A DNA stretch of 64,000 nucleotides from an uncultured Phycisphaerales bacterium (lineage in GTDB: Bacteria; Planctomycetota; Phycisphaerae; Tepidisphaerales; Tepidisphaeraceae), in contig CAVWVQ010000003.1 in the NCBI GenBank assembly GCA_963758525.1, positions 3,616,001 through 3,680,000 of the forward strand, written 5' to 3'. Positions 18,846 through 63,167 of the stretch are shown here, piece after piece. A model generated the notes under the pieces. It ran no database searches, was not told the DNA's origin, and saw only the letters and a list, made by a program, of their open reading frames with translations. Position numbers and translations under genes: made by a program. Position 1 is the stretch's first letter. Every line of letters starts with the position of its first letter.

Positions 18846-19030
18846 CCACGAAGGCACGAAGGCACGGAGGCACGAAGGCACGAAGGGAAGGAAGCAGAAT
18901 TTTTGTACGAAGATCCGGATTTCTCTCCACAAAAATCTTACTTCCTTCCCTTCGTGCCTCCGTGCCTTCGTGCCTTCGTGCCTTGGCTTCCACAAGGTGC
19001 CTTCGTGCCTTGGTCCTGCACCTCCGTGCC
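18846..19030. repeat. Inverted 8-mer tandem-repeat hairpin (GAAGGCAC)n...(GTGCCTTC)n
   Basis: About five GAAGGCAC-type units plus gggaaggaag, mirrored by cttccttccc and gtgccttc units. Confidence 0.9.
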
Positions 19031-19059
19031 AAATCATTCTTCACTTGCGAGGCATGTTG

Positions 19060-19296
19060 ATGCCTAAACGTCTAGCCGCCGCGATGGCTTTGCTCGCGTT
19101 TGCCGCGTGCCTGATTTCGGGCATGCGGGCGCAGAACACGTTCGACACGACGGTCGTACGTGCTCTGGAAGCGTTGATCGTCACGCTGGTCATCGGGCTG
19201 ATCGTCGGGGCGATGGCGCAAAAAATGCTGGATGAAAATGCCGATTCGGCAAAAAAGTCGGAAATTGCGGCGAAACCAACAAAAGAAGACCGATAA
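19060..19296 (+). CDS. Small two-TM membrane protein between flhG and fliA
   Basis: MPKRLAAAMALLAFAACLISG..ALIVTLVIGLIVGAMA; GAGG upstream; co-oriented with the operon. Confidence 0.7.
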   Translation: MPKRLAAAMALLAFAACLISGMRAQNTFDTTVVRALEALIVTLVIGLIVGAMAQKMLDENADSAKKSEIAAKPTKEDR

Positions 19297-19431
19297 CGGA
19301 CTGTGGGACAAAAAACATTTCAGCGTGGATCGCGCCGCGGCATTGTATTTCGCGAACTGGGCCGTAGAAATATCGTGAACGCGGGTCAACCCGCGCACGA
19401 ACCAAGAACCCCCAACGGATTGGGAGCCATC

Positions 19432-20220
19432 ATGGCAAAGACTGCCAAACGGGATATCAAGGAAGTCTGGATTGAGTATCGGAAATCCAAGACCGAAGCG
19501 TTGCGAAACATTCTGATGGAGAATTATCTCCATCTGGTGCGCTACAACGCCGAACGAATTCACGTCAAACTGCCTGACGAAGTCGAACTAGACGATCTCA
19601 TGTCGGCCGGAATCTTCGGCCTGATGGATGCGATCGCGGCGTTTGACCTGGATCGGGGCGTTAAGTTTGAAACCTATTGCGCCCCGCGTATTCGCGGCGC
19701 CATCCTCGACGAGTTGCGTTCGATGGACTGGGTGCCGCGGCTCGTCCGGTCCCGCGCTCACAAGCTCGACAACGCGAGCAAGCAGCTCGAAGTCGAATTG
19801 GGCCGCGCGCCCTCCAACGACGAGATTGCCAGGCGCCTGAAGGTTCCGATGGCCGAGTTCGAGAAGATGGCCAAGGACGCCAGCGCCGTCGGACTCGTCT
19901 CGCTGTCGCGCAAGTGGTTTGAAACCGACAGCAACAAGGACGTGCGCGAGATCGACGTGCTGGAAGACAAGCGCGGCGCGGATCCCGTTCGCGAGATCCA
20001 GCGCAAGGATCTCAAGGAGCTGATCACCAAGGGCCTCAGCCGCGCCGAACGGCTCATCATCATTCTCTACTATTTTGAAGAGATGACGATGAAGGAGATT
20101 GGCGCCACGCTCGATCTCTCCGAGTCGCGCGTCAGCCAGATGCACAGCTCGATTCTCGCCCGCCTCAAGGCCCAGATGGCCGACCGGCGCAAGGAATTCC
20201 AGCAGGCAACCGCCGTCTGA
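19432..20220 (+). CDS. fliA: RNA polymerase sigma-28 factor FliA/WhiG
   Basis: KFETYCAPRIRGAILDELRSMDWVPR and MTMKEIGATLDLSESRVSQMH. Confidence 0.95.
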   Translation: MAKTAKRDIKEVWIEYRKSKTEALRNILMENYLHLVRYNAERIHVKLPDEVELDDLMSAGIFGLMDAIAAFDLDRGVKFETYCAPRIRGAILDELRSMDWVPRLVRSRAHKLDNASKQLEVELGRAPSNDEIARRLKVPMAEFEKMAKDASAVGLVSLSRKWFETDSNKDVREIDVLEDKRGADPVREIQRKDLKELITKGLSRAERLIIILYYFEEMTMKEIGATLDLSESRVSQMHSSILARLKAQMADRRKEFQQATAV

Positions 20221-20391
20221 CGTACCACGGGTTTCCAACCCGTGCGAGCTGCATGGCAGTCGAACCAATCGGGTTCTTGGACTTTTGCGCCGCCTGCGCG
20301 GCATGGGAACCCGTGGGAGTTGCATGGCAGTCGAATCAAACGGGTCCTTGGACTCTTACGTCCCCTGCACGGGTTGGAAACCCGTGTTACG
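20221..20391. repeat. REPIN-like element, family C (GTACCACGGGTTTCCAACCCGTG), with an internal about 70-bp duplication
   Basis: Arms gtaccacgggtttccaacccgtg and cacgggttggaaacccgtgttac; gcatggcagtcgaa..ttggact occurs twice inside; same family at 46877-46937. Confidence 0.85.
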
Positions 20392-22282
20392 AAGATAATG
20401 CCTGGTGATACTCATTCATCAGCGCCCGGCGGCTGATCAGTCCCACGACCCTTCCGGGCTGTCCTTTTAAACAGACGGGAAGTCTTCCCACTTCAAATTT
20501 CGAGAACGTCTCCATCACACTCGCCAGGTCGTCGGTGATCTGCACGCAGGGGAGTTCCGCCCGGACGAGATCGCGCACCAGCAGCAGCGGTATGGCATCG
20601 CGCTGCAGCAGCGTTGTCTGAATATCCCCGGCGATCACCATTCCCGCATAGTCGCCATCCTTGTCGGTGACAACGAAATCGGTCGCCCCGGTCGAATCCT
20701 CCAGCTCGACGAGCCGCTCAAACGGGGATGAGATCGAAACCGCCGTTACTGGCTCCAACGGAACCTGCTCGACGATGAGCCGGCGCAAAATCGACAGGTC
20801 GCTTCCCGACCCGACGCGCACACCGCGCTGGCGAAGGGTGAGCGTGTAGACGGAGTCGGGAAAGATCAGCCGGGCCGTGCCTGTCGCGGCAATGGTCGCG
20901 AGCATCGCCGGGAGAATGATGTTGTGACGGTCGGTCACTTCGACCAGGATCAGAATTGACGCCAGAGGCGCATGGACGACCGCCGCCAGCACCGCACCCA
21001 TTCCGATCAGCGCATACAAGGATGGAGAAACGTCCGCGGCGATGTGAAGATGCTCGAGCAGCACGCCAACCAGTGCGCCAGCCGTTCCTCCCAAAAACAG
21101 GGAAGGCGCGATGACTCCGCCGCTGCCTCCGCTGGCGAGCGTCAGGCAGCTTCCGACGATCTTCGCCAGGCACAGAAACGTCAGCAGCAGGACCAGTTGC
21201 CAGAAGTGAGCCTGAAATGGCACGTAGAAATCCGGCACGAAGAGCTGCTGCACCGCCCCATATCCGTCGCCATAGAACGCCGGCATCGGATAGTGCCTGA
21301 AATCGATCGGCTTGGCGGAGCCCAGGAAGTACCAGCCGAAAACCATCACGTACACGACGCCGATGATTCCCAGCGCCGCGCCGCCGGCGGCGGGCCGCAG
21401 CGCCCGATGGATGGGCCGGCGATGGAAAAATGCGTCCATTCCGTACATCAGCCTGGTCAGCGCGACGCCCGTCAGGCCGCAGATCACGCCGAGCACCAGA
21501 AAGTTTGGAATGCTCCCCCAGCCCAGAAGAGAGATATCGTCCGCCAGCTTTGATGGCACCTGGAAAATGGCTGCATTGCTCAGCGGACTCAGATGGTGCA
21601 GATGCACGAGCAACGCGCGGGCCGTCACGTTGGAGATCACGCTCGCCAGCACGACCGGGGCGAACGCGCTGATTGAAAAATCGAGCAGGATGATTTCGAG
21701 CGTGAAGAGCACGCCGCCGATTGGCGCATCGAAGATCGCGCTGATGCCCGCCGCGCATCCGCAGCCGATCAGCACCGGAAACTGAGGCCGCGCCACCTGA
21801 AACAGCAGTCCAACGCCCGACGCGATTGCCGCTCCGATCTGGACGATCGGCCCTTCGGCGCCGGCAGATCCTCCGCTGCCGATCGTGATGGCGCTGGTCA
21901 GAATCTTTTCGATCGCGGAGCCGGGTTTGATGACGCCGTTATTCCGCATGACCGATTCCATCACGTCAACAACGCCATGTCCCTCCCGGCTCCTGGAGAT
22001 GTAGACGACGATCACGCCGACGAGCAGTCCGCCCAGCGCGGGAAACAGGATGAGCAGCGGAATCCCTCTGCCATACAGGAATTCGGGAGTGAAGTGGCGA
22101 TAGAGCAGATCGCGCAGCAGGTTGATTAATTCGTGGAAGCCGACCGCCGCTGCCCCAGTCACGATGCCCACAATCAGCGCCAGCGGCAGCAGAATTGAAT
22201 TTTCCCCCAGACCCAGGCGCACCATGGCACGCGTCATCAGCAGACGAAACCGAAGGCCAACCGCGGGAATCACTGCGGGCAT
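20387..22282 (-). CDS. ClC family chloride channel/transporter with CBS domains
   Basis: GSGGSAGAEGPIVQIG, GGSGGVIAPSLFLG, many TM segments, C-terminal CBS pair. Confidence 0.92.
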   Translation of the reverse strand: MPAVIPAVGLRFRLLMTRAMVRLGLGENSILLPLALIVGIVTGAAAVGFHELINLLRDLLYRHFTPEFLYGRGIPLLILFPALGGLLVGVIVVYISRSREGHGVVDVMESVMRNNGVIKPGSAIEKILTSAITIGSGGSAGAEGPIVQIGAAIASGVGLLFQVARPQFPVLIGCGCAAGISAIFDAPIGGVLFTLEIILLDFSISAFAPVVLASVISNVTARALLVHLHHLSPLSNAAIFQVPSKLADDISLLGWGSIPNFLVLGVICGLTGVALTRLMYGMDAFFHRRPIHRALRPAAGGAALGIIGVVYVMVFGWYFLGSAKPIDFRHYPMPAFYGDGYGAVQQLFVPDFYVPFQAHFWQLVLLLTFLCLAKIVGSCLTLASGGSGGVIAPSLFLGGTAGALVGVLLEHLHIAADVSPSLYALIGMGAVLAAVVHAPLASILILVEVTDRHNIILPAMLATIAATGTARLIFPDSVYTLTLRQRGVRVGSGSDLSILRRLIVEQVPLEPVTAVSISSPFERLVELEDSTGATDFVVTDKDGDYAGMVIAGDIQTTLLQRDAIPLLLVRDLVRAELPCVQITDDLASVMETFSKFEVGRLPVCLKGQPGRVVGLISRRALMNEYHQALSS

Positions 22283-22301
22283 GGCGGGAGGATAAGGGAA
22301 A

Positions 22302-22541
22302 GGGTTCAGGGTGTCAGGGTCTAGGAGGGTTCAGGGTTCAGGGTTCAGGGTTCAAGGTTCAGGGTTCAGGGTTCAGGGTTCAGGGTTCAGGGTTCAGGGT
22401 TCAGGGTTCAGGGTTCAGGGTTCAGGGTTCAAGGTTCAAGGTTCAAGGTTCAAGGTTCAAAGGACAGGGCATCCCGTCCTGAACCCTGAACCCTGACACC
22501 CTGAACCTGACACACCCTGAACCCTCCTGGACCCTGAACCC
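22302..22541. repeat. Heptamer tandem repeat (RGGTTCA)x19 with inverted (TGAACCC)n arm
   Basis: 19 contiguous units at 22327-22459; reverse-complement units at about 22479-22541. Confidence 0.95.
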
Positions 22542-22594
22542 TTCTGAAGCTCCTTCGGTTTGACTCCGCCGTACACCACGATTAGCGTGAACGC

Positions 22595-23713
22595 GTGCCC
22601 GCATCGGCAAAAAAAGTGATTGTTGCGATGAGCGGCGGAGTCGATAGCTCCGTCGCGGCGGCGTTGCTGCGCCAACAGGGGTACGACGTGATTGGCGTCT
22701 TCATGCGGCTCGGATCGCCCAAAGGCGTCGAGCAGGCTGAAACCTGTGACACCGGCACCGAGAAGTCGAACAAGCAGGGGTGCTGCTCCGTGCTCGACGC
22801 CGACGATGCGCGGCGCGTGGCTGCGGCGCTGGATATTCCTTTCTATGTTCTCAATTTCGAGGAGGATTTCGGCCGGGTCATCGATTATTTCGTCGACGAA
22901 TACAATCGCGGCCGCACGCCCAATCCCTGTGTGCGGTGCAACGACTGGCTGAAGTTCGGCAAGCTCTTTCAATACGCCCAGGCGGTTGGCGCGGATTTCG
23001 TCGCCAGCGGACATTATGCGCGCATCGGCTCCATCAACTGCCGACCCCGTCTGCTGCGCGGTCTCGATACGCGCAAGGACCAGAGTTATGTCCTGTTTGG
23101 GATGCGACGCGAGGCGATCGCGCACACGCTGCTGCCGATTGGGGAATTCGAAAAACATGACGTGCGCGCAATCGCTCGGGAAATGAATCTCCCCGTCTAC
23201 AACAAGCCGGATTCGCAGGAGATTTGTTTCGTTCCGAATCAGGATTACGCCGGACTGGTGCGCCGTCGGACGCCACAGCGCTTTCGCGAAGGACAGTTCG
23301 TGACCACCGCCGGCAAGGTCGTTGGCCAGCATGAGGGGCACCAGCAGTTCACCATCGGGCAGCGCAAGGGGCTGGGCGTGGCGCTCGGATATCCCGTATA
23401 CGTCGTGGATATCGATCCCGCCGCGAACCGGGTGACACTGGGAGGCTCTGAATCGCTGGTGCACCGATCGCTGGTGGCCGGGCAATTGAATTTGCACGAT
23501 GAGCGCCTGGGGGCCGGCGAGACGGTCTCCTGCACCGCGAAGATTCGCTATGGTCATCTGCCGCAGCCAGCGACGGCGACGCTGCGAGGCGCGGACGAGT
23601 TATTCGTCCGGTTCGAACAACCGCAAAGCGCCATCACGCCGGGGCAGGCCGTTGTGTTGTATGACGGCGATATGGTGCTCGGCGGCGGGTGGATCGATTC
23701 GAGCAGCGACTGA
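22595..23713 (+). CDS. mnmA: tRNA 2-thiouridylase MnmA
   Basis: AMSGGVDSSV, GRTPNPCVRCN, ASGHYAR, KDQSY, DSQEICF, TPGQAVVLY. Confidence 0.96.
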   Translation: MPASAKKVIVAMSGGVDSSVAAALLRQQGYDVIGVFMRLGSPKGVEQAETCDTGTEKSNKQGCCSVLDADDARRVAAALDIPFYVLNFEEDFGRVIDYFVDEYNRGRTPNPCVRCNDWLKFGKLFQYAQAVGADFVASGHYARIGSINCRPRLLRGLDTRKDQSYVLFGMRREAIAHTLLPIGEFEKHDVRAIAREMNLPVYNKPDSQEICFVPNQDYAGLVRRRTPQRFREGQFVTTAGKVVGQHEGHQQFTIGQRKGLGVALGYPVYVVDIDPAANRVTLGGSESLVHRSLVAGQLNLHDERLGAGETVSCTAKIRYGHLPQPATATLRGADELFVRFEQPQSAITPGQAVVLYDGDMVLGGGWIDSSSD

Positions 23714-23823
23714 CGCTTGCTGAATGAAGGTGCGCGAGCACGCGCCCAGGCCGGAACAACGCTCCCATCCGGGCGGCCGATGCGTGGTATTTGGAGGGCG
23801 CGAGACCGCGCAGGTTTTTCAGC

Positions 23824-24744
23824 ATGCTTCGTCGTAACGTCCTCATCTTTCATTCCGGCGCGCTGGGAGATTTCATCGTGACCTGGCCGCTGGCGTTGGC
23901 GCTGGCCCGACTCTTCCCGCAAAGCCGAATTTATTACGTCGCCGCGAGTCAGAAAGGCGCTTTGGCGGAGCGCGTTCTGCGACTGGAATCCGCCGACGCC
24001 GAATCGGGATGGCATGCGCTCTTTTCCCAGACGCCGGCGCTGCCCGAACCGGCGATGAAGCTTCTCACCAACGCGCACACCGTCCTGAGTTTCATTGCCG
24101 CGCCGCACGACCGTTGGACGGAAAATGTGCGATCGCTGGCTCCCGGCGCCAATCTGATCTGCGTCAACACGATCGTCCCGGCAAATTTCACCGGCCACGT
24201 CACCGACTGGCTCGTCGAGCAGTGGGGTGGCTGGGCCGCGGGACAGGCCGCCGCCAGCCAGATCCTCCAATCGCTCGCATCGCGCGCACTCCCGCTGGCG
24301 CGCACCGGACGGAACATCATCCTGATCCATCCAGGCGCAGGCTCGGAAGCCAAGTGCTGGCCTGCGGCTCATTTTCTGGCGCTGGCGCGTCGGCTCGCCG
24401 GGGACGGTCGCCGCGTCCGACTTCTGCTGGGTGAAGCCGAGATCGAACGCTGGCCGGCCGACCGCGTCGCGGAGTTTCAGGCTGTTTGCGACGTCGTGCG
24501 CCCCGCGAGCTACGTCGAGCTGTTGAACCACCTTGCCGACGCCGCAACTTTCGTGGGCAACGACAGCGGCCCCGGCCATCTCGCGGGCATCGTCGGCATT
24601 CGCGCCATTTCGCTCTTCGCCGGAACCGATCCCAACCGCTGGAAGCCCCTGGGACCGGATGTGCACGTACTTCCCGGCGTGCCGGATCAATTGTCAGTCG
24701 ATACCGTCTGTGAAGCCGTGCTCGCGACCCATCGAGGATCGTAA
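23824..24744 (+). CDS. Glycosyltransferase family 9 (heptosyltransferase-like)
   Basis: GALGDFI, IHPGAGSEAKCWP, FVGNDSGPGHLA. Confidence 0.9.
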   Translation: MLRRNVLIFHSGALGDFIVTWPLALALARLFPQSRIYYVAASQKGALAERVLRLESADAESGWHALFSQTPALPEPAMKLLTNAHTVLSFIAAPHDRWTENVRSLAPGANLICVNTIVPANFTGHVTDWLVEQWGGWAAGQAAASQILQSLASRALPLARTGRNIILIHPGAGSEAKCWPAAHFLALARRLAGDGRRVRLLLGEAEIERWPADRVAEFQAVCDVVRPASYVELLNHLADAATFVGNDSGPGHLAGIVGIRAISLFAGTDPNRWKPLGPDVHVLPGVPDQLSVDTVCEAVLATHRGS

Positions 24745-24892
24745 ACTGTGCGATCAATGCTCCTCAGCGGAAGCGTTTTCACAGCAAATCGCAGACAGCG
24801 CCGGTGTCCCTCGCACCCGTCAGACTTCCCCATCACAAATTCCCTGTGACAGGCTGCAACTTTAAATCGCGGCAATTGTGGATCGTGCGTTC

Positions 24893-25569
24893 GTAGGGCG
24901 GGATTCATCCCGCCGTTCCTCGGCCGGGCCGACAAATCGGCGGGATGAATCCCGCCCTACTCGGAGCTGATCGCCACTTTCGAGCGCCATACTCAGTGAC
25001 ATTCCTCGCGGCACTTTCCCGTGGCACGGGCGTCCCGCCCGTGTTAGCGACGTGGGAGTCAGAAGATCTTGGTTATCGATGGTTTCCGACTCGCAGCGCA
25101 GTTTGTAGGGCGGGATTCATCCCGCCGTTCCTCGGCTGGGCCGACAAATCGGCGGGATGAATCCCGCCCTACTCGGAGCTGATCGCCACTTCCGAGCGCC
25201 ACACTCAGTGACATTCCGCGCGGCACTTTCCCGTGGCACGGGCTTCCAGCGCGTCCCGCCCGTGTTAGCGACGCGGGAGTGAGAAGATCTTGGCATCGAT
25301 GGTTTCCGACGCTCAGCGCAGTTTGTAGTTTGTAGGGCGGGATTCATCCCGCCGTTCCTCGGCTGGGCCACCAATCGGCGGGATGAATCCCGCCCTACTC
25401 GGAGCTGATCGCCACTTCCGAGCGTCACACTCTGTGACATTCCGCGCGGCACTTTCCCGTGGCACGGGCGTCCCGCCCGTGTTAGCGACGCGGGAGTCAG
25501 AAGATCTTGGTATCGATGGTTTCTTACGCTCAGCGCAGCTAACACGGGCAAGATGCCCGTGCCACGGGG
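24893..25569. repeat. Three tandem mosaic REP units (GTAG REPIN plus family-B REP), periods 212 and 227 bp
   Basis: GTAGGGCGGGATTCATCCCGCC starts at 24893, 25105 and 25332, each with its inverted partner and near-identical linkers. Confidence 0.95.
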
Positions 25570-25673
25570 AAGACGAACTTCCGAGGTCGACTCGTGCGGA
25601 AAATGCGCCGCAACTGGATATAATTTCCCGCGGTGTCCATGCGATCATCGAACGTTGAAACGGCGCCGGAGCA

Positions 25674-27091
25674 ATGATGAGTTCGATCACCCGACGGGAA
25701 ATGTTACGGCGCGCGACGCTGGGATTCGGCAGCGTGGCGCTCATGGATTTGTTGTCGCCGTCGGCGCTGGCCGGCCCGCTCACCGCCAGGGCGCCCGACT
25801 TCGCTCCAAAAGCGCGACGCATCATCTACATCTTCCTCGACGGCGGCCTCTCCTCAATCGATTCTTACGACTACAAGCCGCTGCTGCAGCGCGACGACGG
25901 CAAGCCGCTCCCGGCGTCGATCGCCAGGCCGCGGTTCGCGTTCGCGCCGACGGGGCAGCTTCTGCGCAGCCCATTCGAGTGGAAGCGGTGGGGCAATCGC
26001 GGGATGTGGGCTTCGGACCTCTTCCCTCAGATCAACTCCCAGATCGACGACCTCTGCTTCGTGCATTCACTGCACCATGACAATGAAGATCATTTCACTG
26101 CGAAAAATATGATGGCCACTGGCTCCGGCCGCGAGCCTCGCCCGGCCATTGGATCGTGGGTTGCGTACGGCTTGGGGACGGAAAACGAGAATCTCCCCGC
26201 GTTTGTCGAGATCATGCCCGGAACGCCAAAGAGCACGCCGTCTGCCTTCCTGCCGGCAAGGTACGCGAGCACGCCGATCGGGCGGCCCGATGATCGCGCC
26301 CCCGATCGCGCTGGGAAAATCTTCCGCCCAGCGCATCGGCCTCCGCCCGCGCGGGAGATCGGCTCAACCTGGTTCGCATGATGGATCGCGACCGCGCGGC
26401 CCGTGCCGGGTTGGATCGCGCCCTTGAAGGGGAAATTCAGAACATGGAGCTGGCGTTTCGCATGCAGACCGAAGCGCCGCGGATCATGTCGATGGACGGA
26501 GAATCCCAGGCGACGCGCGCGCTCTACGGCATCGGTGAATCGATGACCGACGATTTCGGCCGCGCGTGTTTGATGGCCCGCAGATTTGCCGAGGGTGGCG
26601 TGCGATACATCACGCTGATGCACTCCACCCGCCAATTCGGAAACCTCTGGGATCAGCACAAAAACCTGTACGAGGGCCATCGAAGCAACGCCATGGCAGT
26701 TGATGTTCCGATCGCGGGCCTTCTTCGCGATCTCAAGAGCCGGGGATTGCTCGACGACACGCTGGTGATGTGCGGGAGCGAATTCGGCCGTACTCCCGTT
26801 TTCGAGTTTCAGGATGGCAACGAAGGCCGCCTGCGCAACGGCCGGGACCACAATCCGCACGGATTCACGATGTGGTTTGCCGGCGGCGGCACGCGGCCAG
26901 GATTGAATTACGGGGCTACCGACGACTACGGCTACTACGCTGCCGTCGACAAAGTGACGGTTCCCGATCTCCACGCGACGATTCTGCACGCCATGGGGCT
27001 GAACCACGAGAAGCTCACGTACCGTTACGGAGGCCGCGACTATCGGCTGACCGACGTGTCGGGGGAAGTGAAGCCGATCTTCCAGACGTGA
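25674..27091 (+). CDS. DUF1501 family protein (Tat-type signal; frameshifted at about 26300-26380)
   Basis: [40 protein letters not shown], then EFGRTP..GRDHNP..AGGG in another frame. Confidence 0.85.
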
Positions 27092-27131
27092 CTGCCGCGA
27101 GGGGCAAATTCAGCGGCACGCGTCGCACCTG

Positions 27132-28600
27132 TCATCGTGGAACGATGAGCTGGCACACATCGTACGCAGACAACTCAACGCGACGATCTGCAAGAGGTTC
27201 AGATTTGTCACCTGCTGCTGGGTGACTCACTCTGATGGAAGCGCCGGCGGCAAGTCCGTCGATTATCACAACGCGGGCCTGATCGGATCGATTCACGAGC
27301 CAGAGCGTCGTGGTTCCGATGTCGTTCATGGCAAACGCATCGACATCGCGATTCGGCATCACCGTCACATCGACCAACGGCTTGCCTGCCAATTCTTTGA
27401 ACAGCGCGATAATCCTGCTCGCTTGCGGCGTTGAATCCCGGAACGCGGCTTCGTCGATTTCCCCGAGCGACAGCGATTTGATTGCGCCAGCCGTCCAGGC
27501 AGCACCGAAGTCGAGCGGCCGGGCAATTGCCGGCCACGCGCCATCAGGCCAGATTGGACCGACCCGAAGCAGCGCCCGCGGAGCAAAGGTGCGCACGGTC
27601 CGCGCCTGGGCGATGATCGCCGAGAGATTCTCCATCGCCGTGTCGTTATCCGGCAGATGTGTGCCGGTCGTCCATTTCCAGGTGACGGCCGTTGCATCCT
27701 TGAAACGGTCGCGATGCCCGTTCAAAGCGAGAAAGCTCGCTGCCTCGCTGAAGCGGTCAGGTGAGCTGATCGCGCACAGACGCGCGCCGGGGATTGGGGA
27801 ACCGATTCGGACGTGCACGGCCTCGTCCGTCGGCGCGGTCGTCGCCGGCGGCGCCGATTCGACACGCAGCGTCAATGTCTGCGTGAGAGCCTGGCCCTTT
27901 TCAATCCTGGGATAGGCATACGGCATCGGATTGTACGCTTTGAACGAAGAGTCGCCGTAGTTGCGCTGATCTTCCATGTCGAAGGTCGACTCGGCGATGC
28001 CGCAGGAAACGTGAAGGGCGTCGATCGCGTACCGCAACGTGTGAAAGCGCAACGCGACCAGCGCCGGCGACACCAGTTCAGGAAACTGGCCTGGCGCGGC
28101 ATGGCCCTGCTCGTCGAGAGTTTCGAATTTCTGTCCCGCCAATGAGTCGCTGCCGTAGAGAACGCACAGTCCGATGCGGGCGGACGTGCCGTCCGCGGGA
28201 GCCGATCCGGTGACACGGAACTCGATTGTGCCATCCGCGGATCCCGTAACGTCTGCCGTCCAGTTGTACGAAATCGTCTTTCCCTGACACGACGCCGAAA
28301 GATGAATCGCAAAATGATCCTCTGCCGCCTCGACTCTCGCCGCACTAAAGCTAGGCATATCGGTGGCGGCAAACTTCGCCTCGCGGACGCCGAAGTAAAT
28401 TCGCCGGACGATCTCGCGGCCGCCCACGCGCAGGTAGCGCAGCTCTCCATCCTGATACTTGAGCGTAATGGGGCCGGCACGCAGCGTCATGGCAGCAGTG
28501 TCGATAGGCTTGGACGCGGGTTGGGTGCTATCAGCAGCAAGGGCACACACAGTCGATGCTAGGCACACGCATAGCGTGCTGAAAAACGTGGCCCACGCGT
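27132..28600 (-). CDS. Hypothetical, probably exported protein resembling the D-apionate lactonase (ApnL) family; start uncertain
   Basis: LRAGPITL..GELRYLRVGGREIVRRIY and FDMEDQRNYGDSSFKAY resemble ApnL-like motifs (from recall, not searched); signal-like FFSTLCVCLASTVCALA. Confidence 0.55.
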
Positions 28601-28644
28601 TCGCGCTCCGCGCGCGTGGAGGGCAGATTCTCGGGATGCGGTCT

Positions 28645-28748
28645 TCCCCCTCCCCTGGTACTCCGGGGGAGGGCTGGGGTGGGGGCCGAACTTGCGATCG
28701 GCGCGGTCTGCCCCCATCTCCATCCTCCCCCGGAGTACCAGGGGAGGA
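28645..28748. repeat. REPIN-like element, family D (CCCCTGGTACTCCGGGGGA)
   Basis: cctcccctggtactccggggga ... tcccccggagtaccaggggagg. Confidence 0.85.
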
Positions 28749-28887
28749 AAGAGGAACTGCATTCCCGAAAATCTCCTCACGCCTTGAATCTGAAACAATT
28801 CGACCTCCTGCTGGCGTGAGCATAACCGAGCCGTGTATAAACAGCGGAGCCAACGTTGCGAATTTGCGAGCGCTGGCCGGAGGTCGA

Positions 28888-31587: not shown

Positions 31588-31618
31588 ATCGAACCGCACA
31601 ATACCCCAGGAGCTTCTC

Positions 31619-32478: not shown

Positions 32479-32540
32479 CTGGATCAACCGCAGAGATCAA
32501 CCATGATTCCAGGCGGCGGCCGCACAGTCTGTGACTCATT

Positions 32541-32650
32541 TTCCCCTCCCCTGGTACTCCGGGGGACGGTCAGGGTGGGGGCCTCTTCGGCAATCGGGAA
32601 TGGCACTGCCCCCGCCCCAGCCCGCCCCCGGAGTACCAGGGGAGGGGGGA
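32541..32650. repeat. REPIN-like element, family D
   Basis: cccctcccctggtactccggggg ... cccccggagtaccaggggagggg. Confidence 0.85.
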
Positions 32651-32660
32651 CGCCGCCTAA

Positions 32661-35696: not shown

Positions 35697-35814
35697 TCCC
35701 TACTCCCGGTACACCGGGAGAAGGTTAGGATGAGGGTGATTTCGAGCACCAAATGCTCTCGAATTCCAGATCACCCTCCCCCCGACCCTCTCCCGAAGCA
35801 CCGGGAGAGGGAGC
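35697..35814. repeat. Degenerate family-D-like REPIN
   Basis: tccctactcccggtacaccgggag..gagggtgat / atcaccctc..ctctcccgaagcaccgggagaggga. Confidence 0.7.
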
Positions 35815-36567: not shown

Positions 36568-36677
36568 GGGTTAGCCGCGACGCGGAGCGGAGCGAGTATT
36601 CGAACGAGAAACGGCGCATTTTCATCGCTCGCGCAATCCCCGCGAATACGCGCTCCGCTGCGCGTCGCGGCTAACCC
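36568..36677. repeat. Long inverted repeat between convergent genes
   Basis: gggttagccgcgacgcggagcggagcgagtattcg / cgaatacgcgctccgctgcgcgtcgcggctaaccc. Confidence 0.85.
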
Positions 36678-38401: not shown

Positions 38402-38552
38402 TTCATTTTTACTTTTGCAGTTTTCATTTAACATTTTTCATTCCGATCCCCTCCCTCCAGACCGAACCCTTGCAAACGGAGAATGACAAATGAAAAATGA
38501 AAAGTGAAAAAGGTAAAGTGATATGATTTCCTGAGCCCTGAACCCTGAACCC
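38402..38552. repeat. AT-rich degenerate heptamer inverted array (TTTTCAT..ATGAAAA) plus TGAACCC remnant
   Basis: ttcatttttacttttgcagttttcatttaacatttttcatt / aatgacaaatgaaaaatgaaaagtgaaaa; ctgagccctgaaccctgaaccc. Confidence 0.7.
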
Positions 38553-42091: not shown

Positions 42092-43168
<1,077 letters not shown>

Positions 43169-51955: not shown

Positions 51956-52024
51956 GGGAGCAATACACGCTCGAACTCGATCAGCGACAGTGCGAACGCC
52001 CGACATTCTTCAGGAGAGACACCC

Positions 52025-53002: not shown

Positions 53003-53223
53003 GGAGACGCTCGAATTTGCGGGCGGAGACATTGTGGTGCGGGCTTCCAGCCTGCAATTGCACGCCCGGAAAATTTCGCGTACGGCCCAGGCAATAATTG
53101 ATGATTTTCTTGCGCCGGGCTCTTGCATTTTTGCGGGCAACGTCCGATATTGTGGTGCCGCGCCGGGCTGGGCTGCTGTTCCGACGCGACTGAATTTTAC
53201 ATCTCAATTGCATGGAGGCTCTT

Positions 53224-54117
53224 ATGGCACGGATGTTCCAGTGGGTTGGCATTTCCTTCATCGGCGTCGCCTCTCTCGGCTGCGTCTCCCAGGAAAAATA
53301 CAACGCTCTTAAGCTCGACCGAGACCAATACGCAGAACGACTCGGCACCGCCGAACGCGATGCCCTTTCCGCTTCTGCCGAAGCCGACGCTTACAAGCGC
53401 CAGCTTGAATTGATCGCGCACGGCAGCACCGATCAGCAGGGGCTGATCACCAATCTCACAACGCAGGTCTCCGATCTGCAACGCGAGAATGATGAACTGA
53501 ATCGCAAGTACGCCGATGCGATGAATCGTCCGGTTGGGATGGCCGCTCTTCCGGCTCCGCTCAATGACGCGCTGACCCAGTTTGCTCAACAGAACCCCGA
53601 TCTGGTCGACTTCGATAGCGCTCGCGGCGTTGTGAAGTTCAAGAGCGACGTCACCTTCGCCACGGGAAGCGCCGAAGTCACGCCAAAGGCGCAGGCCGTA
53701 ATCACGCGCTTTGCGCAGATTCTCAATTCCGCCGCCGCGGCGAACTACGAATTGATGGTCGTCGGGCACACCGACAATCAGCACGTAGTCAATGCCCGCA
53801 CCATTGCTCAGGGACACAAGGACAACTGGTATCTGTCGGCACACCGCGCGATTTCCGTCAGCGAGTCGCTGCAGCGTGAGCGGGTGAGCCCGACCCGGCT
53901 TGAAGTCGCCGGGTGCGCCGATGAGCGTCCGATTGCCAGTAACTCAACCGATGGCGGCCGCTCGCAGAACCGACGAGTTGAGGTGCTGATCCTCCCGACG
54001 ACCGTTCATGCTCCGACGGTCGCCGCCACCGACGTTGTCGCTCCCAGGCACGTCAGCCAGGCGAAGCTGAACAAAGACTCGGCGGAGGTCGACGTGCGGC
54101 CGCACCTGAACAAGTAG
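53224..54117 (+). CDS. OmpA/MotB-like peptidoglycan-binding lipoprotein
   Basis: Lipobox SLGC, coiled coil, FATGSA, VGHTDN, NWYLSAHRA, NRRVEV. Confidence 0.85.
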   Translation: MARMFQWVGISFIGVASLGCVSQEKYNALKLDRDQYAERLGTAERDALSASAEADAYKRQLELIAHGSTDQQGLITNLTTQVSDLQRENDELNRKYADAMNRPVGMAALPAPLNDALTQFAQQNPDLVDFDSARGVVKFKSDVTFATGSAEVTPKAQAVITRFAQILNSAAAANYELMVVGHTDNQHVVNARTIAQGHKDNWYLSAHRAISVSESLQRERVSPTRLEVAGCADERPIASNSTDGGRSQNRRVEVLILPTTVHAPTVAATDVVAPRHVSQAKLNKDSAEVDVRPHLNK

Positions 54118-54143
54118 GCTGCACACCTGCCATGACGAGCCTC

Positions 54144-54177
54144 AACGCCCCGGCGGCATTCGCCGGGGCGTTTTTGT
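54144..54177 (+). terminator. Intrinsic terminator
   Basis: aacgccccggcg / cgccggggcgtt followed by tttgtt. Confidence 0.85.
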
Positions 54178-54393
54178 TGTTGTGCAATCCAGTGGCGCGA
54201 TAGAATTCAAAAGAGTTTGAGAAGCGTTAAACGCTTGAATTACAGTGGTTTGATCGCGCGGCTTTGCGGATTGCACACAATTTCTTCGCCGGCCCCTTGC
54301 ATCCGGAAAATCAGGCGATACAGTTCGCAACCCGCGTGCGGGAGCGTCCGACAAAGACGGCTGCGAAAAACTGGAAAGTTGAAGTCACAGCCC

Positions 54394-54421
54394 TTGACGC
54401 GACGAAGAAAAGGCGTATGAT
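54394..54421 (+). promoter_or_regulatory. Sigma-70 promoter of the 23S-5S operon
   Basis: TTGACG (54394-54399), 16-nt spacer, TATGAT (54416-54421). Confidence 0.7.
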
Positions 54422-54663
54422 CTAAACCTCCACTTGACGGAGTGGAAACGTAAGCAGAATACGAGGAATACGAGGCCACCTTCACGAGGCGAATAAGTTT
54501 GGCGAATCATTCAAGCGATCACCTGCCCGAGTAACGCCAGTCCCTGTCTGAAGGGTTGCTGGCGACGTGCCGGCGACGTTCCCTGAAAATTTGCGAAGCG
54601 CAGTCGAATCCGAATCAGTCCGCCGCCGCTCTGTCGGCTGACTGACCCGTGTTCGACGGGAAT

Positions 54664-54703
54664 TTTTGTCGGTCTGTTGTGACGACAAAAGGCTCTTTGA
54701 AAA
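54664..54703 (+). promoter_or_regulatory. rrn antitermination boxB-like hairpin plus boxA
   Basis: ttttgtcg..cgacaaaa hairpin followed by GCTCTTTGAAAA. Confidence 0.7.
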
Positions 54704-55038
54704 GTGAATATGAGGTTCAAGGTTTATTTGCAAAATAAACCTCCGCGATGCCTGCCCAAATTTCTGTTAGTCGTACTGTTGGTCTTTTCGTCTGGGTTGG
54801 AGCATTCGGAAGTCTATTCGAGACTTCCGATCCTCTGGGTTTCAGATTTGAGATTTCAAATTTGAGACCTCAGAGATCTGGCTCCAATCGGGCAGGTATC
54901 GTCGAGCACCTTTTTGGCGAATGTTGATCCGTTATCGCTCAGGCAATGTCCTTTGTGAATTGCACCGTGCCCGCGCCCCGGGCATCCTGATGGGAGTTAG
55001 TTCCTCCCTGTCGGGACTCAACGGTGATCGATAAATGT

Positions 55039-58329
<3,291 letters not shown>

Positions 58330-58542
58330 CTTTTATCGATCATCGTTCGCAGACCGGTTTCGTTATCTGAGATTTGAGATTTCAAATTTGAGATGCGAAG
58401 CCGGAACCAAACTGCGTGCTCGGCGATCGCGGAGTGGTCGGCAAAGTGTGATCGGTTTGCAATCGATCACATCGTTTCCGACCATTGAACCTCATAATCA
58501 CGAAATTCAGCCCACCGGGCTCTAACCGGCCCGGTGGGTTTT

Positions 58543-58651
58543 CGTTGGTGGCTATATTGGTGGGGTCACACCCGTTCCCATTCCGAACACGGTCGTTAAG
58601 CCTGCCAAGCCGATGATACTGCTTCAGCGGGAAAGTAGGTCACTGCCAGCG
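58543..58651 (+). rRNA. rrf: 5S rRNA (about 109 nt)
   Basis: cacccgttcccattccgaacacggtcgttaag and gaaagtaggtcactgccag; paired termini. Confidence 0.97.
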
Positions 58652-58654
58652 TTA

Positions 58655-58695
58655 AAAAGGCCCCCGGTCCCAAAAGGATCGGGGGTTCTTTTTTG
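58655..58695 (+). terminator. rrn intrinsic terminator
   Basis: cccccggtcc/ggatcggggg followed by ttctttttt. Confidence 0.85.
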
Positions 58696-58926
58696 CGCGG
58701 ACCGCTCCACCCCGATCTGCTCGTTCATGAGCAAACGCAGAGGGATGTCCAGACGGACGGGTTAACCCACGTTACGAACTGCGTAACTTGGGTTTGATTA
58801 TTCAAACGTCGATTCGGAAGGAACAGCGCTTCGCCGAATGCTATTGCCGTCGCTTGCGTCGTCGCGGATGCCGCGAGCGGAGCATGGCGCGTCGTGCGGA
58901 GCGAATGCTCGCCGATCCTGTCCGCG

Positions 58927-59827
58927 TCAACGTCCGCCTGGCTGTGAAGTTGGCGGCGGGATTCCCGCCAGATCGATCGCATTCAAGACCCGCGGATCCC
59001 CCGGAGCGATCTGGTTCAGGGCCCGCACCACAGCTTCCCGAATCGTCCCCGATGCCGATAGCAACTTCAGCAGTGCCGGCACCGCCGTCGCCGCATCCGG
59101 GCCAATCCGCCCCAGGGCCTCGATCGCCGCCACGCGAGCACTGTCTTGCGGTCGCTGCGCCACCGACGTTAGCGCGCCCACCGCTCCCCGCGCCGCGGGA
59201 CCCGCATCCCCAAGCAGTGTGGCCGCGTGCTTGCGAATTTCCGGGTCGGGAAACTGCAATGCCAGGATCAAATCTGCTTGGGGCGTGCGGGGGGTAACCG
59301 CCGGCCGATGACTGGCAAGAAAATCCGGATCGATCGCCTCCACCACGGAGTTGATGAAGGTTTCCTTGAGCGCGTACCCGCCGGCAAATTTGCGAAAATG
59401 CAGCGCCCAGACGACGGGCGCCGCCGATCGTGCCGGCGGCCCGATCTTCTCCAGGGACTCACAGCATCGCAGTGCGGTTCCCGCGTCTGTGGTCGTCTCA
59501 ATTTCGTGAATCGCCCATCGCAGGACAAGCGCCCTGCGAACCGCGGGAACCGCGAGCGTCCCGAAAATTCCCAGCACCGCGCACAGCGCGATGGGCAGCT
59601 TGTACGACCGCACGCGCGCGATCGGCGGTGCCAGCAGCACCGCGCCCTCCGGATCATCGATCACCAGCAGTCTCGTCGAGCCATGCGCCTCCCAGGGCGC
59701 CAGGCTCGGATCAGCGGGGATGACATTCACAAACCCGCAGGCGCACTGCGCAGCGAACGCGCAACGTCTCGCCGGCCTGCACGGCCGGCAGCGGAGTTCC
59801 GCATTTGCGACAACCGAATCGCTGCAT
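58927..59827 (-). CDS. HEAT-repeat membrane protein with a probable N-terminal zinc ribbon (frameshift at about 59760)
   Basis: HEAT-like ALGRIGPDAATAVPALL repeats and a TM segment; MQRFGCRKCG and QCACG lie in adjacent frames. Confidence 0.7.
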
Positions 59828-59852
59828 GCCTTTTAAGTGTAGCGGGCGCGGC

Positions 59853-61004
59853 TCAACGCGGAAGAGAAAGCGCATGCCGGGCCGCGATTGCCGTGGCGGC
59901 GGCTTCGGTGGGATGATCCGCAAGCGCCGTCAGATGCCCCATTTTTCTCCGCGGCCGGGGTTCGAGCTTGCCATACAGATGCAGCTTCACTTCCGACGCT
60001 GCAAGAGCGGCCGTCCACCTCGGCTCGCCGGATTCCCACAGATCGCCCAGAAGATTCGCCATCGCCGCCGGCCGAAGCTGCCTCGTGCTGCCCAATGGCA
60101 GTCCGCACACCGTCCGCAGTTGCTGCTCGAACTGGCTGGTGACGTGCGCGTCGATCGTCAGATGCCCGGAATTGTGCGGCCTTGGCGCCAGCTCGTTGAC
60201 CAGCAACCCTCCGAACTTCGTCAGGAAAAACTCGACGCACAGGACGCCGACGACATCGAGTTTCTCCAGGATTCCGCGCGCCAACTCCGCCGCCTCATCG
60301 GCGGTCTTATCTGGAACATCCGCGGGGCAGACGGACAGATCGAGGATATGGTCCCGGTGTGAATTGTGTATCACGCCCCAGTGCGAGAATTCGCCGTCCG
60401 CTCCACGGGCGGCAACGACCGAGACTTCCCGATCAAAATCGACGAACGCTTCATAGACGCGTTCGATGCTCGGATCGACCCGCATCGCGGCGCTGATCTC
60501 CGCCGTGGTATGTACGGTTGCCTGCCCCTTGCCGTCGTACCCGAAAGCGGCCGTCTTCAGAACGCCGGGAAGTCCCAGCAATTCCGCCGCTGCCAGTGCT
60601 TCCTCGAGCGATCGCACTACGCGAAAGGGCGTAACTGGAAAACCGTGATCGGCCAGAAATGTTTTTTCGCGCGCTCGATGCTGCGTGACATGCAGCACCG
60701 ATCCATTCGGGCGCACGCTGGTGTGGTGCGCTACGACATTCGCTGTCGCGGCCGGCACATTTTCAAACTCGAACGTGACCACATCCACGCCGCGGGCAAA
60801 CTCCGCGACGGAGTCAAGATCGTCGTACGCGCACGTGAATTCTTTGTCGGCAACCTGCCCCGTAGGCGTGTCGCTGTCGGGAGAGAGCGTGTGGACGCGA
60901 TACCCCATCTGCCGCGCCGCAATGGCAAACATGCGCCCGAGCTGCCCGCTGCCGAGCACTCCGACAGTGGAACCGGGAAGGATGATGGAGTTTGTTTCAG
61001 CCAA
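59853..61004 (-). CDS. purK: N5-carboxyaminoimidazole ribonucleotide synthase
   Basis: GVLGSGQLGRM, TFEFEN, GYDGKGQ, NELAPRPHNSGH, RKMGH. Confidence 0.96.
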   Translation of the reverse strand: MAETNSIILPGSTVGVLGSGQLGRMFAIAARQMGYRVHTLSPDSDTPTGQVADKEFTCAYDDLDSVAEFARGVDVVTFEFENVPAATANVVAHHTSVRPNGSVLHVTQHRAREKTFLADHGFPVTPFRVVRSLEEALAAAELLGLPGVLKTAAFGYDGKGQATVHTTAEISAAMRVDPSIERVYEAFVDFDREVSVVAARGADGEFSHWGVIHNSHRDHILDLSVCPADVPDKTADEAAELARGILEKLDVVGVLCVEFFLTKFGGLLVNELAPRPHNSGHLTIDAHVTSQFEQQLRTVCGLPLGSTRQLRPAAMANLLGDLWESGEPRWTAALAASEVKLHLYGKLEPRPRRKMGHLTALADHPTEAAATAIAARHALSLPR

Positions 61005-61023
61005 CGAATGGCACCGCAGTAGC

Positions 61024-61536
61024 TCAAGACTTCACGGGACCGGGGGGAAGACTCTGCTCGAGCACGCCTTGCGTCTGCGTCGCGCGAAATATCCTGAGTG
61101 TTTCACGAAGCTGCGGCCGGGAATTGGCAAGAATCGCAACGGCCAGCAATGCCGCGTTGGTCGCGCCGGCTTTTCCAATGGCCAGCGTTCCAACCGGCAC
61201 ACCCGCCGGCATCTGCACGATCGACAGCAGCGAGTCCATCCCGCTCAACGACTGGCTTTGCACGGGAACTCCCAGCACGGGAACGATCGTGTACGCTGAG
61301 GCCATGCCCGGCAGATGCGCCGCGCCTCCCGCCCCCGCGATGATCACTTCAATCCCGCGCTCTTCGGCGCTGCCGGCAAACTCCGCGAGCCATTGCGGAG
61401 TTCGGTGCGCCGAAACGACCTGACACACGCGCGGGACCGCGAAGCGTTCGAGCATTGCGTCCGCATGGGACATCGTCTCCCAATCCGATGCGCTCCCCAT
61501 GATGATCGCCACCAACGGCTTTGGTTCGTCCGTCAT
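61024..61536 (-). CDS. purE: N5-CAIR mutase
   Basis: [36 protein letters not shown]. Confidence 0.97.
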
Positions 61537-61543
61537 ACTGCAT

Positions 61544-61610
61544 GCAGGGCGGGATTCATCCCGCCGGTCCCTCGAAGATCAAACTCGCGGCGGGATGAAT
61601 CCCGCCCTGC
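61544..61610. repeat. Family-A REPIN variant (GCAG ends)
   Basis: gcagggcgggattcatcccgcc ... gcgggatgaatcccgccctgc. Confidence 0.9.
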
Positions 61611-61701
61611 GGGAGATCGATCGCGCCCGATTCCTCACGGACGGCCGGTTGCAAAGCGTCCGCTTTCCCCACCGGCGCTGCGATCCTACCATAACTCCGC
61701 A

Positions 61702-62871
61702 ATGCCGGAAGTCGCCGCACTCCTCGACCAACACACGCACTTCGATCCGGACGCGGACTTCGAGGCCTTTCTCGCGTCCATTCCCCGCAAATGGGCCGTC
61801 TATCTTTTCGCCGACGAGTCCGGCCGGCCCGTTCAACTGCTGTCTGTGAAGAATTTGCGTTACAGCCTGAAGCGCCGCCTCGGTGGCGGCGAGACCATCG
61901 GTCTCAGCAAGCGCGTCAACTACCGACAGCTGGTCCGCATCATCCGCTGGCGACGCGTCGACAGCACATTCGAAGCCGATTGGCTCTATTACGAAGCCGC
62001 CCGCATCGTGTTTCCCCAGACCTACCGCGGAATGGTCGGCTTTCGCCCGGCCTGGTTTGTTCACGTCAATCCCGAAACCAGTTTTCCCCGATACATCAAG
62101 ACGACTGACCTCACTCGTTCTGGAGTTCTCGCCGGGCCGGTCGCGGACAAGCACGCCGCGGCTCGACTGATCGCGTTGCTTGAAGATGCCTTCGATCTCT
62201 GCCGCTACTACCAGATCCTGGTCGAGGCGCCGAACGGCAAAGCCTGCGCTTACAAGGAAATGGGCAAGTGTCCCGCGCCCTGCGACGGTTCGATCTCGAT
62301 GCAGCAGTATCACCGCATGATTCAACGCAGCGTCGATGCGCTCCTCGATCCTGCGCCGGCGGTTCGCGAACAGGAACAGCGCATGCGCACGGCCGCCACG
62401 GACCTGCGCTTCGAGTTGGCCGCGAAGATCAAGTCGTACGCCGATCAGCTTTCGCAGCTCGGCAAAGGCGCGTTTCGTCACGTGCGCCGCTTGCGCGATT
62501 TTCAGTTCCTCTCCGTGCAGGCAGGGCCGCGCGTCGGGACCGCAAAGGTGTTCCTGATCTCCGCCGGCCAGATCGAAGAAATCCTCGGCTTGACCACTGC
62601 CCAGCTCCCACGCCCGGCGCAGATTCTCGCCTGCGCGCTGGAGACGCTGACCCGACGCCACTCCGAAACCGTCGACGTCGAAGGAGCCGAGCGCATCGGC
62701 ATCGTCGCCCATCATCTGTTCTCCACGAAGCAGAACACCGGCGTCCTGCTCGCGCTGGCGTCGATCGACGAAAAAGCGATCGCCCGCGCCTGCCGTGAAG
62801 TGCAGCAGCGGGAAGAGATCCCGGAAGTAGAAGAAGAAGGCGTCGTCCGCGAGCTGCAATCAATGGGGTAG
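61702..62871 (+). CDS. UvrC/Cho-like protein (degenerate GIY-YIG, Cys cluster, UVR domain)
   Basis: AVYLFADESG..KNLR, CRY..CAYKEMGKCPAPC, MRTAATDLRFELAAKIK. Confidence 0.7.
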   Translation: MPEVAALLDQHTHFDPDADFEAFLASIPRKWAVYLFADESGRPVQLLSVKNLRYSLKRRLGGGETIGLSKRVNYRQLVRIIRWRRVDSTFEADWLYYEAARIVFPQTYRGMVGFRPAWFVHVNPETSFPRYIKTTDLTRSGVLAGPVADKHAAARLIALLEDAFDLCRYYQILVEAPNGKACAYKEMGKCPAPCDGSISMQQYHRMIQRSVDALLDPAPAVREQEQRMRTAATDLRFELAAKIKSYADQLSQLGKGAFRHVRRLRDFQFLSVQAGPRVGTAKVFLISAGQIEEILGLTTAQLPRPAQILACALETLTRRHSETVDVEGAERIGIVAHHLFSTKQNTGVLLALASIDEKAIARACREVQQREEIPEVEEEGVVRELQSMG

Positions 62872-62880
62872 AAGAGAAGA

Positions 62881-63167
62881 AAGGCACGAAGGGAAGAAGG
62901 GACGAAGGGGCGAAGGGACGAAGGGACGAAGGGACGAAGGGACGAAGGGACGAAGGGACGAAGGGACGAAGGGACGAAGGGACGAAGGGACGAAGGGACG
63001 AAGGCGCGAAGGCACGGAGGCACGAAGGGAGGACGGAGAGGCGCGGAACACGGCGGCCACGAAGGCACGCAGTGTGGGACAAGAGGTAACGGTCGCCAAA
63101 CAAACCTGCCGCGTCAGCGTCCTCCCCTTCGTGCCTCCGTGCCTCCGTGCCTCCGTGCCTTCGCGCC
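62881..63167. repeat. 8-mer tandem array (AAGGGACG/AAGGCACG, about 19 units) with inverted arm
   Basis: 11 perfect AAGGGACG units at 62913-63000 within 62881-63032; inverted cttcgtgcctccgtgcc units at 63125-63167. Confidence 0.95.

Follow-up and report, generated by a model that had tools for sequence, protein, structure and literature searches.

Dispersed tandem-repeat hairpins of a Phycisphaerales genome and their candidate cognate genes of the PF05635 and GxxExxY families

Dispersed tandem arrays of 7-nt units, lying between genes and placed in a lineage-specific manner, are familiar from the short tandemly repeated repetitive (STRR) sequences and long simple sequence repeats of cyanobacteria. 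Arrays of the unit TAACTGA in Beggiatoaceae have the same habit (PMC4679880). Other repeats come with a gene of their own. In REPIN-RAYT systems, REPtrons and TIRtrons, a single gene is flanked by cognate hairpins and several gene-repeat pairs can share a genome (PMC3116915; 10.1101/2021.07.10.451892; PMC3733652), along with dispersed inverted gene-less doublets, singlet remnants, nested copies and tandem clusters that include flanking DNA (PMC3116915). Ssn nucleases pair a small single-domain gene with flanking, dispersed hairpin repeats (NTS/SRM), and gene and repeat co-occur (PMC11893778). Finally, the intervening sequences (IVSs) of 23S rRNA can carry a PF05635 (S23p) open reading frame (ORF) in a terminal stem, and heptamer repeats have been noted 5′ of that ORF (PMC4990558). 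The hairpins treated here recall each of these. They consist of a tandem array of a 7-8-nt unit, a short spacer and an array of the reverse-complement unit, and they recur with different units in a 64,000-nt stretch (the window, G000:C3:3616001-3680000) of the 6.47-Mb, 91% complete assembly of an uncultured Phycisphaerales bacterium.

The best reading of these hairpins, by analogy, is a gene-plus-hairpin system like REPIN-RAYT or Ssn that appears to be built on unrelated proteins. Most families are hairpins matched to a small gene of their own seated between arms of the matching unit, and are likely selfish DNA. The window copies are gene-less members of dispersed families and, on balance, are probably copied in trans by a cognate protein that would recognise the arms, with the help of host repair. 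Cassettes of gene plus arms, a match between unit and protein clade, co-occurrence of gene and arrays in the GGGTTCA family, gain and loss at orthologous sites, and a lack of target duplications are the direct observations on which this reading draws.

Hairpins of the window and the genes between their arms

An earlier note on this DNA had described the recurring design, and every array that it listed was found at its position. These are the three GAAGGCAC/GAAGGGAC-type hairpins at 18846, 42575 and 62881, the GGGTTCA array at 22302 with remnants at about 9313 and 38531, an ATGAAAA-like hairpin at 38402 (present as TTCATTT/AATGAAA), and the ATTTGAG family of the rrn locus, which occupies four sites between 54840 and 58394. 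An array of GAARACGT had been described as one-armed; the lone arm is there, but the composite family to which it belongs is paired at other loci. The arms differ in copy number as claimed, from 2 to 48 units per arm. The features are as follows.

9313..9328: right arm alone, a 2.3-unit remnant of GGGTTCA
18846..18985 (arms 18847-18886/18949-18984): gene-less GAAGGCAC hairpin after fleN, 5 + 4.5 units, folding z -16.2; further degenerate right-arm units reach ~19030
22301..22546 (arms 22301-22459/22478-22546): gene-less GGGTTCA hairpin in the divergent clc/mnmA gap, left arm grown to 22 units
38402..38522 (arms 38402-38442/38482-38521): TTCATTT/AATGAAA hairpin with reversed arm order, folding z -4.8
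38530..38552: right arm alone, a GGGTTCA remnant adjoining the AATGAAA hairpin
42575..42676 (arms 42576-42612/42633-42663), + strand: AAAGGGAC/GAAGGGAC hairpin, in frame in pheS (42092-43168), at a variable loop
43180..43266: solitary left arm of the composite GGTGATT-GGAACGTGA-CGTGAAA family, downstream of pheS
54840..54867: ATTTGAG hairpin 5′ of the 23S gene
56959..57359, + strand: ORF-less group I intron in the 23S rRNA gene, hosting two ATTTGAG insertions
57040..57105, + strand: ATTTGAG array in a peripheral loop of that intron
57287..57321, + strand: ATTTGAG hairpin close to the intron's 3′ end
58368..58394: ATTTGAG hairpin in the 23S-5S spacer
62881..63169 (arms 62881-63030/63126-63169): hybrid hairpin with expanded GAAGGGAC (19 units) and GAAGGCAC

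Folding of 10 window stretches gave z values of -3.0 to -16.2 against 200 shuffles. The window has 5 inverted pairs of 7-8-mer arrays no more than 300 nt apart, and each of its 20 shuffles has none; the whole genome has 245, as against 0, 1 and 0 in three shuffles. Clustered by unit, the families of the genome prove to be multi-locus, with 17-124 clusters each. Eleven unit families, defined by pattern, make up 371 merged loci, 35 of which hold more than one family. Arm order is fixed, with the purine-rich arm first in 37/37 GGGTTCA pairs and 31/31 GAAGGCAC pairs; in the AATGAAA family the order is the opposite, the pyrimidine arm coming first in 8/8 pairs. Unit identity, arm order and inner modules are common to dozens of loci, and spacers vary between loci.

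With gap types assigned by a rough, purpose-made gene finder, 220 loci fall in co-directional gaps, 75 in convergent gaps, 63 in divergent gaps and 12 in reading frames, with 1 at a contig end. This distribution is close to the supply of such gaps, with no preference for a gap type, and single arms in co-directional gaps have no strand bias (42 vs 38). A search of the genome for exact empty paralogous sites returned a single diverged pair, its other matches being element copies, so that element ends cannot be fixed to the base. Contigs from two soil DNA runs (containing 9% and 6% of words) were short fragments with no junction across any element. Copies of an GCGAAGAC element with 40-230 nt of flank, at 97-98% identity, occur in tandem and at distant loci (G000:C3:574315-575607, 4092539-4093823 and 3463993-3465021); the flank recurs with the element, and flanking DNA therefore travels along.

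The candidate trans-acting genes lie outside the window and belong to PF05635 (a four-helix bundle, Avd-like) and PF13366 (GxxExxY, of PD-(D/E)XK type). Profile searches of the genome returned eight matches to PF05635, seven of them over the cut-off, and four to PF13366. The earlier note had suggested small ORFs enclosed by the arms as a place to look, and genes of both families were indeed found bracketed by inverted arms of their own unit. Flank units are AGGAGCC, GAAGGGAC, GGGTTCA, TAGTGAA, GAATGAC and GGTGATT-GGAACGTGA for the four-helix-bundle genes, and CGCGAAGA, GAACGCAGAT, CACGAAT and CACAAAAA for the GxxExxY genes. Arms of the composite GGTGATT-GGAACGTGA-CGTGAAA family bracket the four-helix-bundle match at G000:C3:86416. 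For 10 of the 12 genes, either flank complementarity exceeds the 99th percentile of random windows or a complete hairpin adjoins, and the units are all different. There are exceptions. Upstream of one PF05635 gene lies a complete TAGAGCAG hairpin in place of bracketing arms; the weakest of the PF05635 matches is to a broken gene, and its arms are poor; and a foreign element interrupts the right flank of one GxxExxY gene. Two genes are of particular relevance to the window.

G000:C3:3097241-3097558: cognate four-helix-bundle gene of the GGGTTCA family
G000:C3:4377228-4377545: four-helix-bundle gene of the type cognate to the GAAGGGAC/GAAGGCAC hairpin, inside dnaE2

The same arrangement is seen in relatives. 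A set of 152 loci (12 from this genome and 140 from relatives) was picked by hand from ~250 PF05635 and ~160 PF13366 matches, and two loci with short flanks were dropped. Median complementarity between upstream and downstream flanks was 52 for PF05635 and 56 for GxxExxY, against 22-23 for cross-paired flanks. The 95th percentile of the cross-pairs was exceeded at 65/78 four-helix-bundle and 63/72 GxxExxY loci, and the 99th at 50 and 38, respectively. No bracketing by tandem arms was seen for DUF559 genes.

Several other features were seen in passing. Arms can enclose unrelated cargo, for example a 117-aa membrane-like ORF between GAATGAC arms (G000:C3:3184747-3185277), and in G075 nested arms enclose ~800 nt (L280). 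A small, unannotated membrane-like gene in the fleN-fliA gap (window 19072-19300) is kept in 9/9 relatives examined. The window also holds a non-tandem CCTCCCC...GGGGAGG hairpin family (28649-28747, 32543-32647 and 35703-35807; 100-174 binned matches genome-wide); copies of it next to two DUF559 genes (C3:1103306 and C3:1210856) may represent a third pairing of gene and repeat. Further hairpin families resembling repetitive extragenic palindromes (REPs) lie at 24889-25572, 2845-2962, 36568-36677, 5624-5704 and 20237-20386, with 5-188 binned matches each; one of them is a 212-nt unit repeated three times, and the family of 5624 adjoins a Y1_Tnp match at C3:361057. Four near-identical reverse transcriptase (RT) matches in 466-aa frames (G000:C1:202459, C1:207753, C2:269151 and C3:3034309) are likely a multi-copy group II intron.

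Agreement of units with protein clades and genomes

In a tree of 77 PF05635 proteins (103 columns, with many forks open and bootstrap not fully settled), the starred clades have a single unit each. These are GGGTTCA (4 rows, support 100/100), the 8-9-mer GAAGG[CG]AC/GAAGCGAC (5 rows, 100/99), ATTTGAG (5 rows, 100/100), TAGAGCAG (5 rows, 98/97) and TTGTC/TCCGTTG (9 rows). Within the 8-mer clade, several members carry GAAGCGAC in place of the 8-mer. The GGGTTCA clade was traced into 78 loci of Planctomycetota, Verrucomicrobiota, Desulfobacterota and others, which became 63 after 12 copies of one genome were collapsed and 4 short loci dropped. At least two GTTCAG-like words stand on each side of 48/63 GGGTTCA-clade loci, compared with 1/74 other PF05635 loci and 0/74 GxxExxY loci. 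Units thus follow protein clades, across phyla too, and the gene-family association on which the earlier proposal depended is present.

Genes and arrays also keep company at the level of genomes. Sixty-one genomes were compared, 42 of them at least 90% complete, and GGGTTCA arrays were counted with a 15-nt pattern, a 24-nt pattern being too genome-specific. In the more complete genomes, arrays occur in 4/4 with an intact clade gene and 0/38 without (16-63 pattern matches against 0-2), a near-clean table that bears out the expectation of co-occurrence. G022, in which the clade gene is truncated, has a single match. Over all genomes the table is 5/5 vs 5/56, and the 8-mer family gives 8/9 vs 8/33; cross controls of these tables were not significant. 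One unpublished genome, G004, supplies one negative row here and, among the sites described below, a pheS loop and a clc-mnmA gap that are both empty.

Turnover of sites, proposed mechanism and alternatives

Orthologous sites in relatives, where the earlier note had hoped for empty ones, are indeed empty or hold other families. The pheS loop lacks tandem arrays in 24/28 relatives parsed (1 of 30 loci was unparsed), and within one genus it holds three unit families, all in frame, in three genomes. Besides the window's own hairpin, the loop contains GGGTTCA in G001, an GGAGACGC-type array in G002, nested units in G021 and one-armed arrays in G015. The fleN gap is without GAAGGCAC in 9/9 relatives, two of which hold other units there; the clc-mnmA gap is without GGGTTCA in 5/5 syntenic relatives, and G019 has a GAAATCC/GAATGAC hairpin in it. 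Matching 23S group I introns occur in G071, G055 and G012, none with ATTTGAG arrays, and their peripheral loops carry CTAGGWG-type arrays, TTAGTTG-type arrays or none. In G071 a PF05635 cassette with CTAGGTG arms is inserted in helix 45 of 23S rRNA (L052:162-598), and the CTAGGTG arm recurs gene-less in the intron of the same genome. The GGGTTCA cassette itself was found at 4 different sites among 6 genomes. Also in this region of relatives, G012 has a second, ORF-bearing intron just upstream of the shared 23S intron site (L054), and G009 and G015 have PF05635 matches within ~3 kb of 23S matches.

Insertions can also be accommodated within proteins. The 8-mer-clade cassette inside dnaE2 has a length that is a multiple of three and no stop in 9/9 full spans, and DnaE2 would be read through the cassette over a span of 190-300 residues; such open inserts are likely translated through, not spliced. 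The bundle gene lies in the +1 frame in 8/8 spans where it was located. A +1-type frame is open in 13/66 PF05635 genes overall, and the nine dnaE2 spans share ancestry. In the Phycisphaerales genome, four families contribute about ten elements to the imuA-imuB-dnaE2 operon (G000:C3:4371995-4379468), among them a four-helix-bundle gene in a second dnaE2 frame, and dnaE2 appears frameshifted further down in the assembly.

Both candidate proteins are of kinds that the earlier note had in mind for its trans-acting enzyme, and for both catalysis stays putative. In GxxExxY, the residues D, E, K, Q and Y are kept at 97-100% of 74 sequences and form D-ExK and QxxxY motifs, the latter of which we take to be a RecB-type motif. 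Its predicted model (pLDDT 96) shows a weak but consistent likeness to Cas4, lambda exonuclease, Hjc and restriction enzymes; Foldseek gave no match at E <= 0.001, the best Z was 7.8, and the PD-(D/E)XK assignment thus rests on many concordant weak matches plus the motif. Going by this model, GxxExxY is likely a nuclease. The four-helix-bundle protein matches Xcc0516 (PDB 2GSC, E 8.8e-23) and has near-invariant polar residues Q, R, S, N, E and E (94-99% of 77). Its family forms a pentamer (PMC4990558) and is related to Avd, the partner of an RT (PMC10053308). The arm-flanked genes match TIGR02436 and TIGR04256, the former being the family of the bundle.

In the mechanism envisaged, the cognate protein would bind an arm as a single-stranded hairpin, for which Ssn provides the model (PMC11893778). 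GxxExxY would nick the hairpin through its PD-(D/E)XK site; the four-helix bundle, an Avd-like pentamer, would act as recogniser, with cutting by itself or by a host enzyme. The copy would then be pasted by host repair, leaving no target duplication and sometimes taking flanking DNA along. Slippage would afterwards lengthen single arms, and selection would retain those insertions that fall between genes, in RNA loops or, in frame, in protein loops.

Several points weigh against this reading. Co-descent of gene and arms would likewise make unit and clade agree, and this agreement alone is no proof of recognition. Genes of both kinds, four-helix-bundle and GxxExxY, have the 8-mer unit in their flanks, meaning that unit and protein are not one-to-one, and PF05635 is without a recognised catalytic motif. 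The genomes of the gene/array tables are not independent, so p-values overstate, and five incomplete genomes (72-88%) have 9-235 GGGTTCA matches with no clade gene found. Searches of the 91%-complete Phycisphaerales genome found no cognate gene for TTGCAAA (45 clusters), ATTTGAG (39) or AATGAAA (17). By DNA search, ATTTGAG arrays occur in at least 15/61 genomes, and the clade gene in 5; none was found in the high-quality, array-bearing genomes G019, G058, G062 or G075, the last 98% complete with many ATTTGAG arrays, and 20 ATTTGAG loci of relatives had no PF05635 or GxxExxY gene nearby. Such arrays could be explained by gene loss after spread, by assembly gaps or by a promiscuous partner. Lastly, in G078 (L377-L393) identical four-helix-bundle cassettes lie in a ~660-nt element with ends like those of an insertion sequence (IS) and with 8-nt target duplications in 9/12 distinct copies. 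A search for a parent transposase with such ends found none. The cassette has evidently multiplied inside an IS-type element, and hitch-hiking can therefore occur, though it is not the rule.

A bolder version of the mechanism is offered tentatively, and is perhaps a minority bet: an Avd-like pentamer without a known enzyme fold would read about five tandem units, one per subunit, and drive hairpin copying by new chemistry under a changeable protein-to-repeat code. Median units per array are 4.4-5.9 in families of the four-helix-bundle type, compared with 3.1-3.7 in GxxExxY families. If true, the pentamer system would be a common source of ORF-bearing rRNA IVSs, of second-frame genes in dnaE2 and of the excess of 7-8-nt repeats in bacteria.

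A route through RNA is unlikely. Under it, cassettes would be cut from transcripts at the stem by RNase III, bound by the Avd-like bundle, copied by a host RT and reinserted. Excision by RNase III has been shown for the Coxiella IVS (PMC4990558), the resemblance of PF05635 to an RT partner (PMC10053308) and the G071 cassette at helix 45 of 23S rRNA point the same way, and cassette genes are co-oriented with both neighbours at 54/58 PF05635 and 58/60 GxxExxY resolved loci, versus 382/784 small genes (strand caller trained on G000). However, promoterless cassettes that need host transcription would give co-orientation too, and gene-less copies are about as frequent in divergent and convergent gaps as those gaps are. 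Moreover, the RT family PF00078 is found in just 25/61 genomes, as against 59 for PF05635 and 53 for PF13366, and frames that stay open through the insertions imply no removal from mRNA.

It is more doubtful that the genes are passengers, with generic transposases (RAYT/IS200-like HUH or DDE) moving the arms and gene-less copies arising by deletion. The genome does have 23 matches to Y1_Tnp (PF01797, HUH), some arrays exist without a found gene, and the G078 cassette rides in its IS-like element. Yet no tandem-family locus lies within 500 nt of any of the 23 Y1_Tnp matches, and a generic enzyme would leave the 4/4 vs 0/38 table unexplained. Target duplications, which the earlier note had proposed to look for, were sought in the GGGTTCA family, and none was found at 16 clean end pairs from 14 distinct loci, where the mean was 0.7 nt and that of the cross controls 1.2 nt.

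It is improbable that the hairpins form a regulatory network in which a small protein binds the repeat in RNA or DNA and sites accumulate as control elements by recombination and selection. A repeat-binding protein has been proposed as the mobile part for the TAACTGA repeats of Beggiatoaceae (PMC4679880), and co-occurrence of gene and sites would fit as well. Against this, sites are not conserved within one genus, are swapped between unrelated units, occur within intron loops and, in frame, within pheS and dnaE2, and show no preference for a gap type. Slippage with fold-back duplication, making terminator-like hairpins independently at each locus, can be set aside: variable arm copy numbers and differing spacers fit it, but it is contradicted by one unit, a fixed arm order and inner modules common to dozens of loci, by gene-clade ties across phyla and by GGGTTCA co-occurrence.

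Relation to known systems

The preferred reading, a gene-plus-hairpin system with trans-acting cognate proteins, has no exact counterpart in the literature covered, which also takes in 10.1101/2024.02.27.582315: no paper linking PF05635 or PF13366 genes to inverted tandem arms was found there, with supplements and most subscription papers outside that scope. The contribution of this genome lies in about ten families that can be compared together, with units that match clades; in one family whose gene/array table is near-clean; in pheS and intron sites that different families have reused; and in explicit cases that go against the reading. TIGR02436 and TIGR04256, very widespread and of uncharacterised function, gain family-specific candidate substrates. 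Like Ssn before it, a 110-130-residue family with a clade-dependent target word would offer programmable binders or nickases. The elements also remodel essential genes (the PheS loop and DnaE2) with frames intact.

Comparison with more distant systems is brief. A classical DDE-IS miniature inverted-repeat transposable element would leave target duplications, which are lacking at GGGTTCA ends, the exception being the carrier element of G078. The accessory protein Avd of diversity-generating retroelements, and Xcc0516, share the fold and pentamer of the four-helix-bundle protein (PMC10053308), but no RT, template or variable repeat lies between cassette arms (no search was made beside cassettes). 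For the TAACTGA arrays, the portion of PMC4679880 consulted describes no cognate gene or inverted pairing and has 0 matches to "four helix" or "GxxExxY".

Among the closer relatives, Ssn is a GIY-YIG nuclease with shown activity (PMC11893778), whereas the proteins here are a predicted PD-(D/E)XK protein and a helical bundle; the words "tandem" and "four helix" are absent from the main text of that paper. REPIN-RAYT systems share the layout given at the outset but differ in three respects: the arms here are tandem 7-10-nt units; the flanked genes are of PF05635 or PF13366, not HUH (Y1) transposases, the protein that defines those systems; and the cassettes occupy different sites in different genera, coding frames and rRNA among them. 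The likeness to 23S IVSs holds for the gene-bearing cassettes, not for the gene-less copies of the window, which are intergenic or lie in pheS, rrn spacers and an intron instead of an rRNA helix; none of the eight PF05635 genes of the genome is in its single rrn. In the IVS literature the element is regarded as one of rRNA only, whereas most cassettes here are found between protein genes or within them, and their gene-less relatives number in the hundreds. A single origin is thereby offered for dispersed heptamer and octamer repeats and for ORF-bearing rRNA IVSs, the latter being a special case of the gene-plus-hairpin system.

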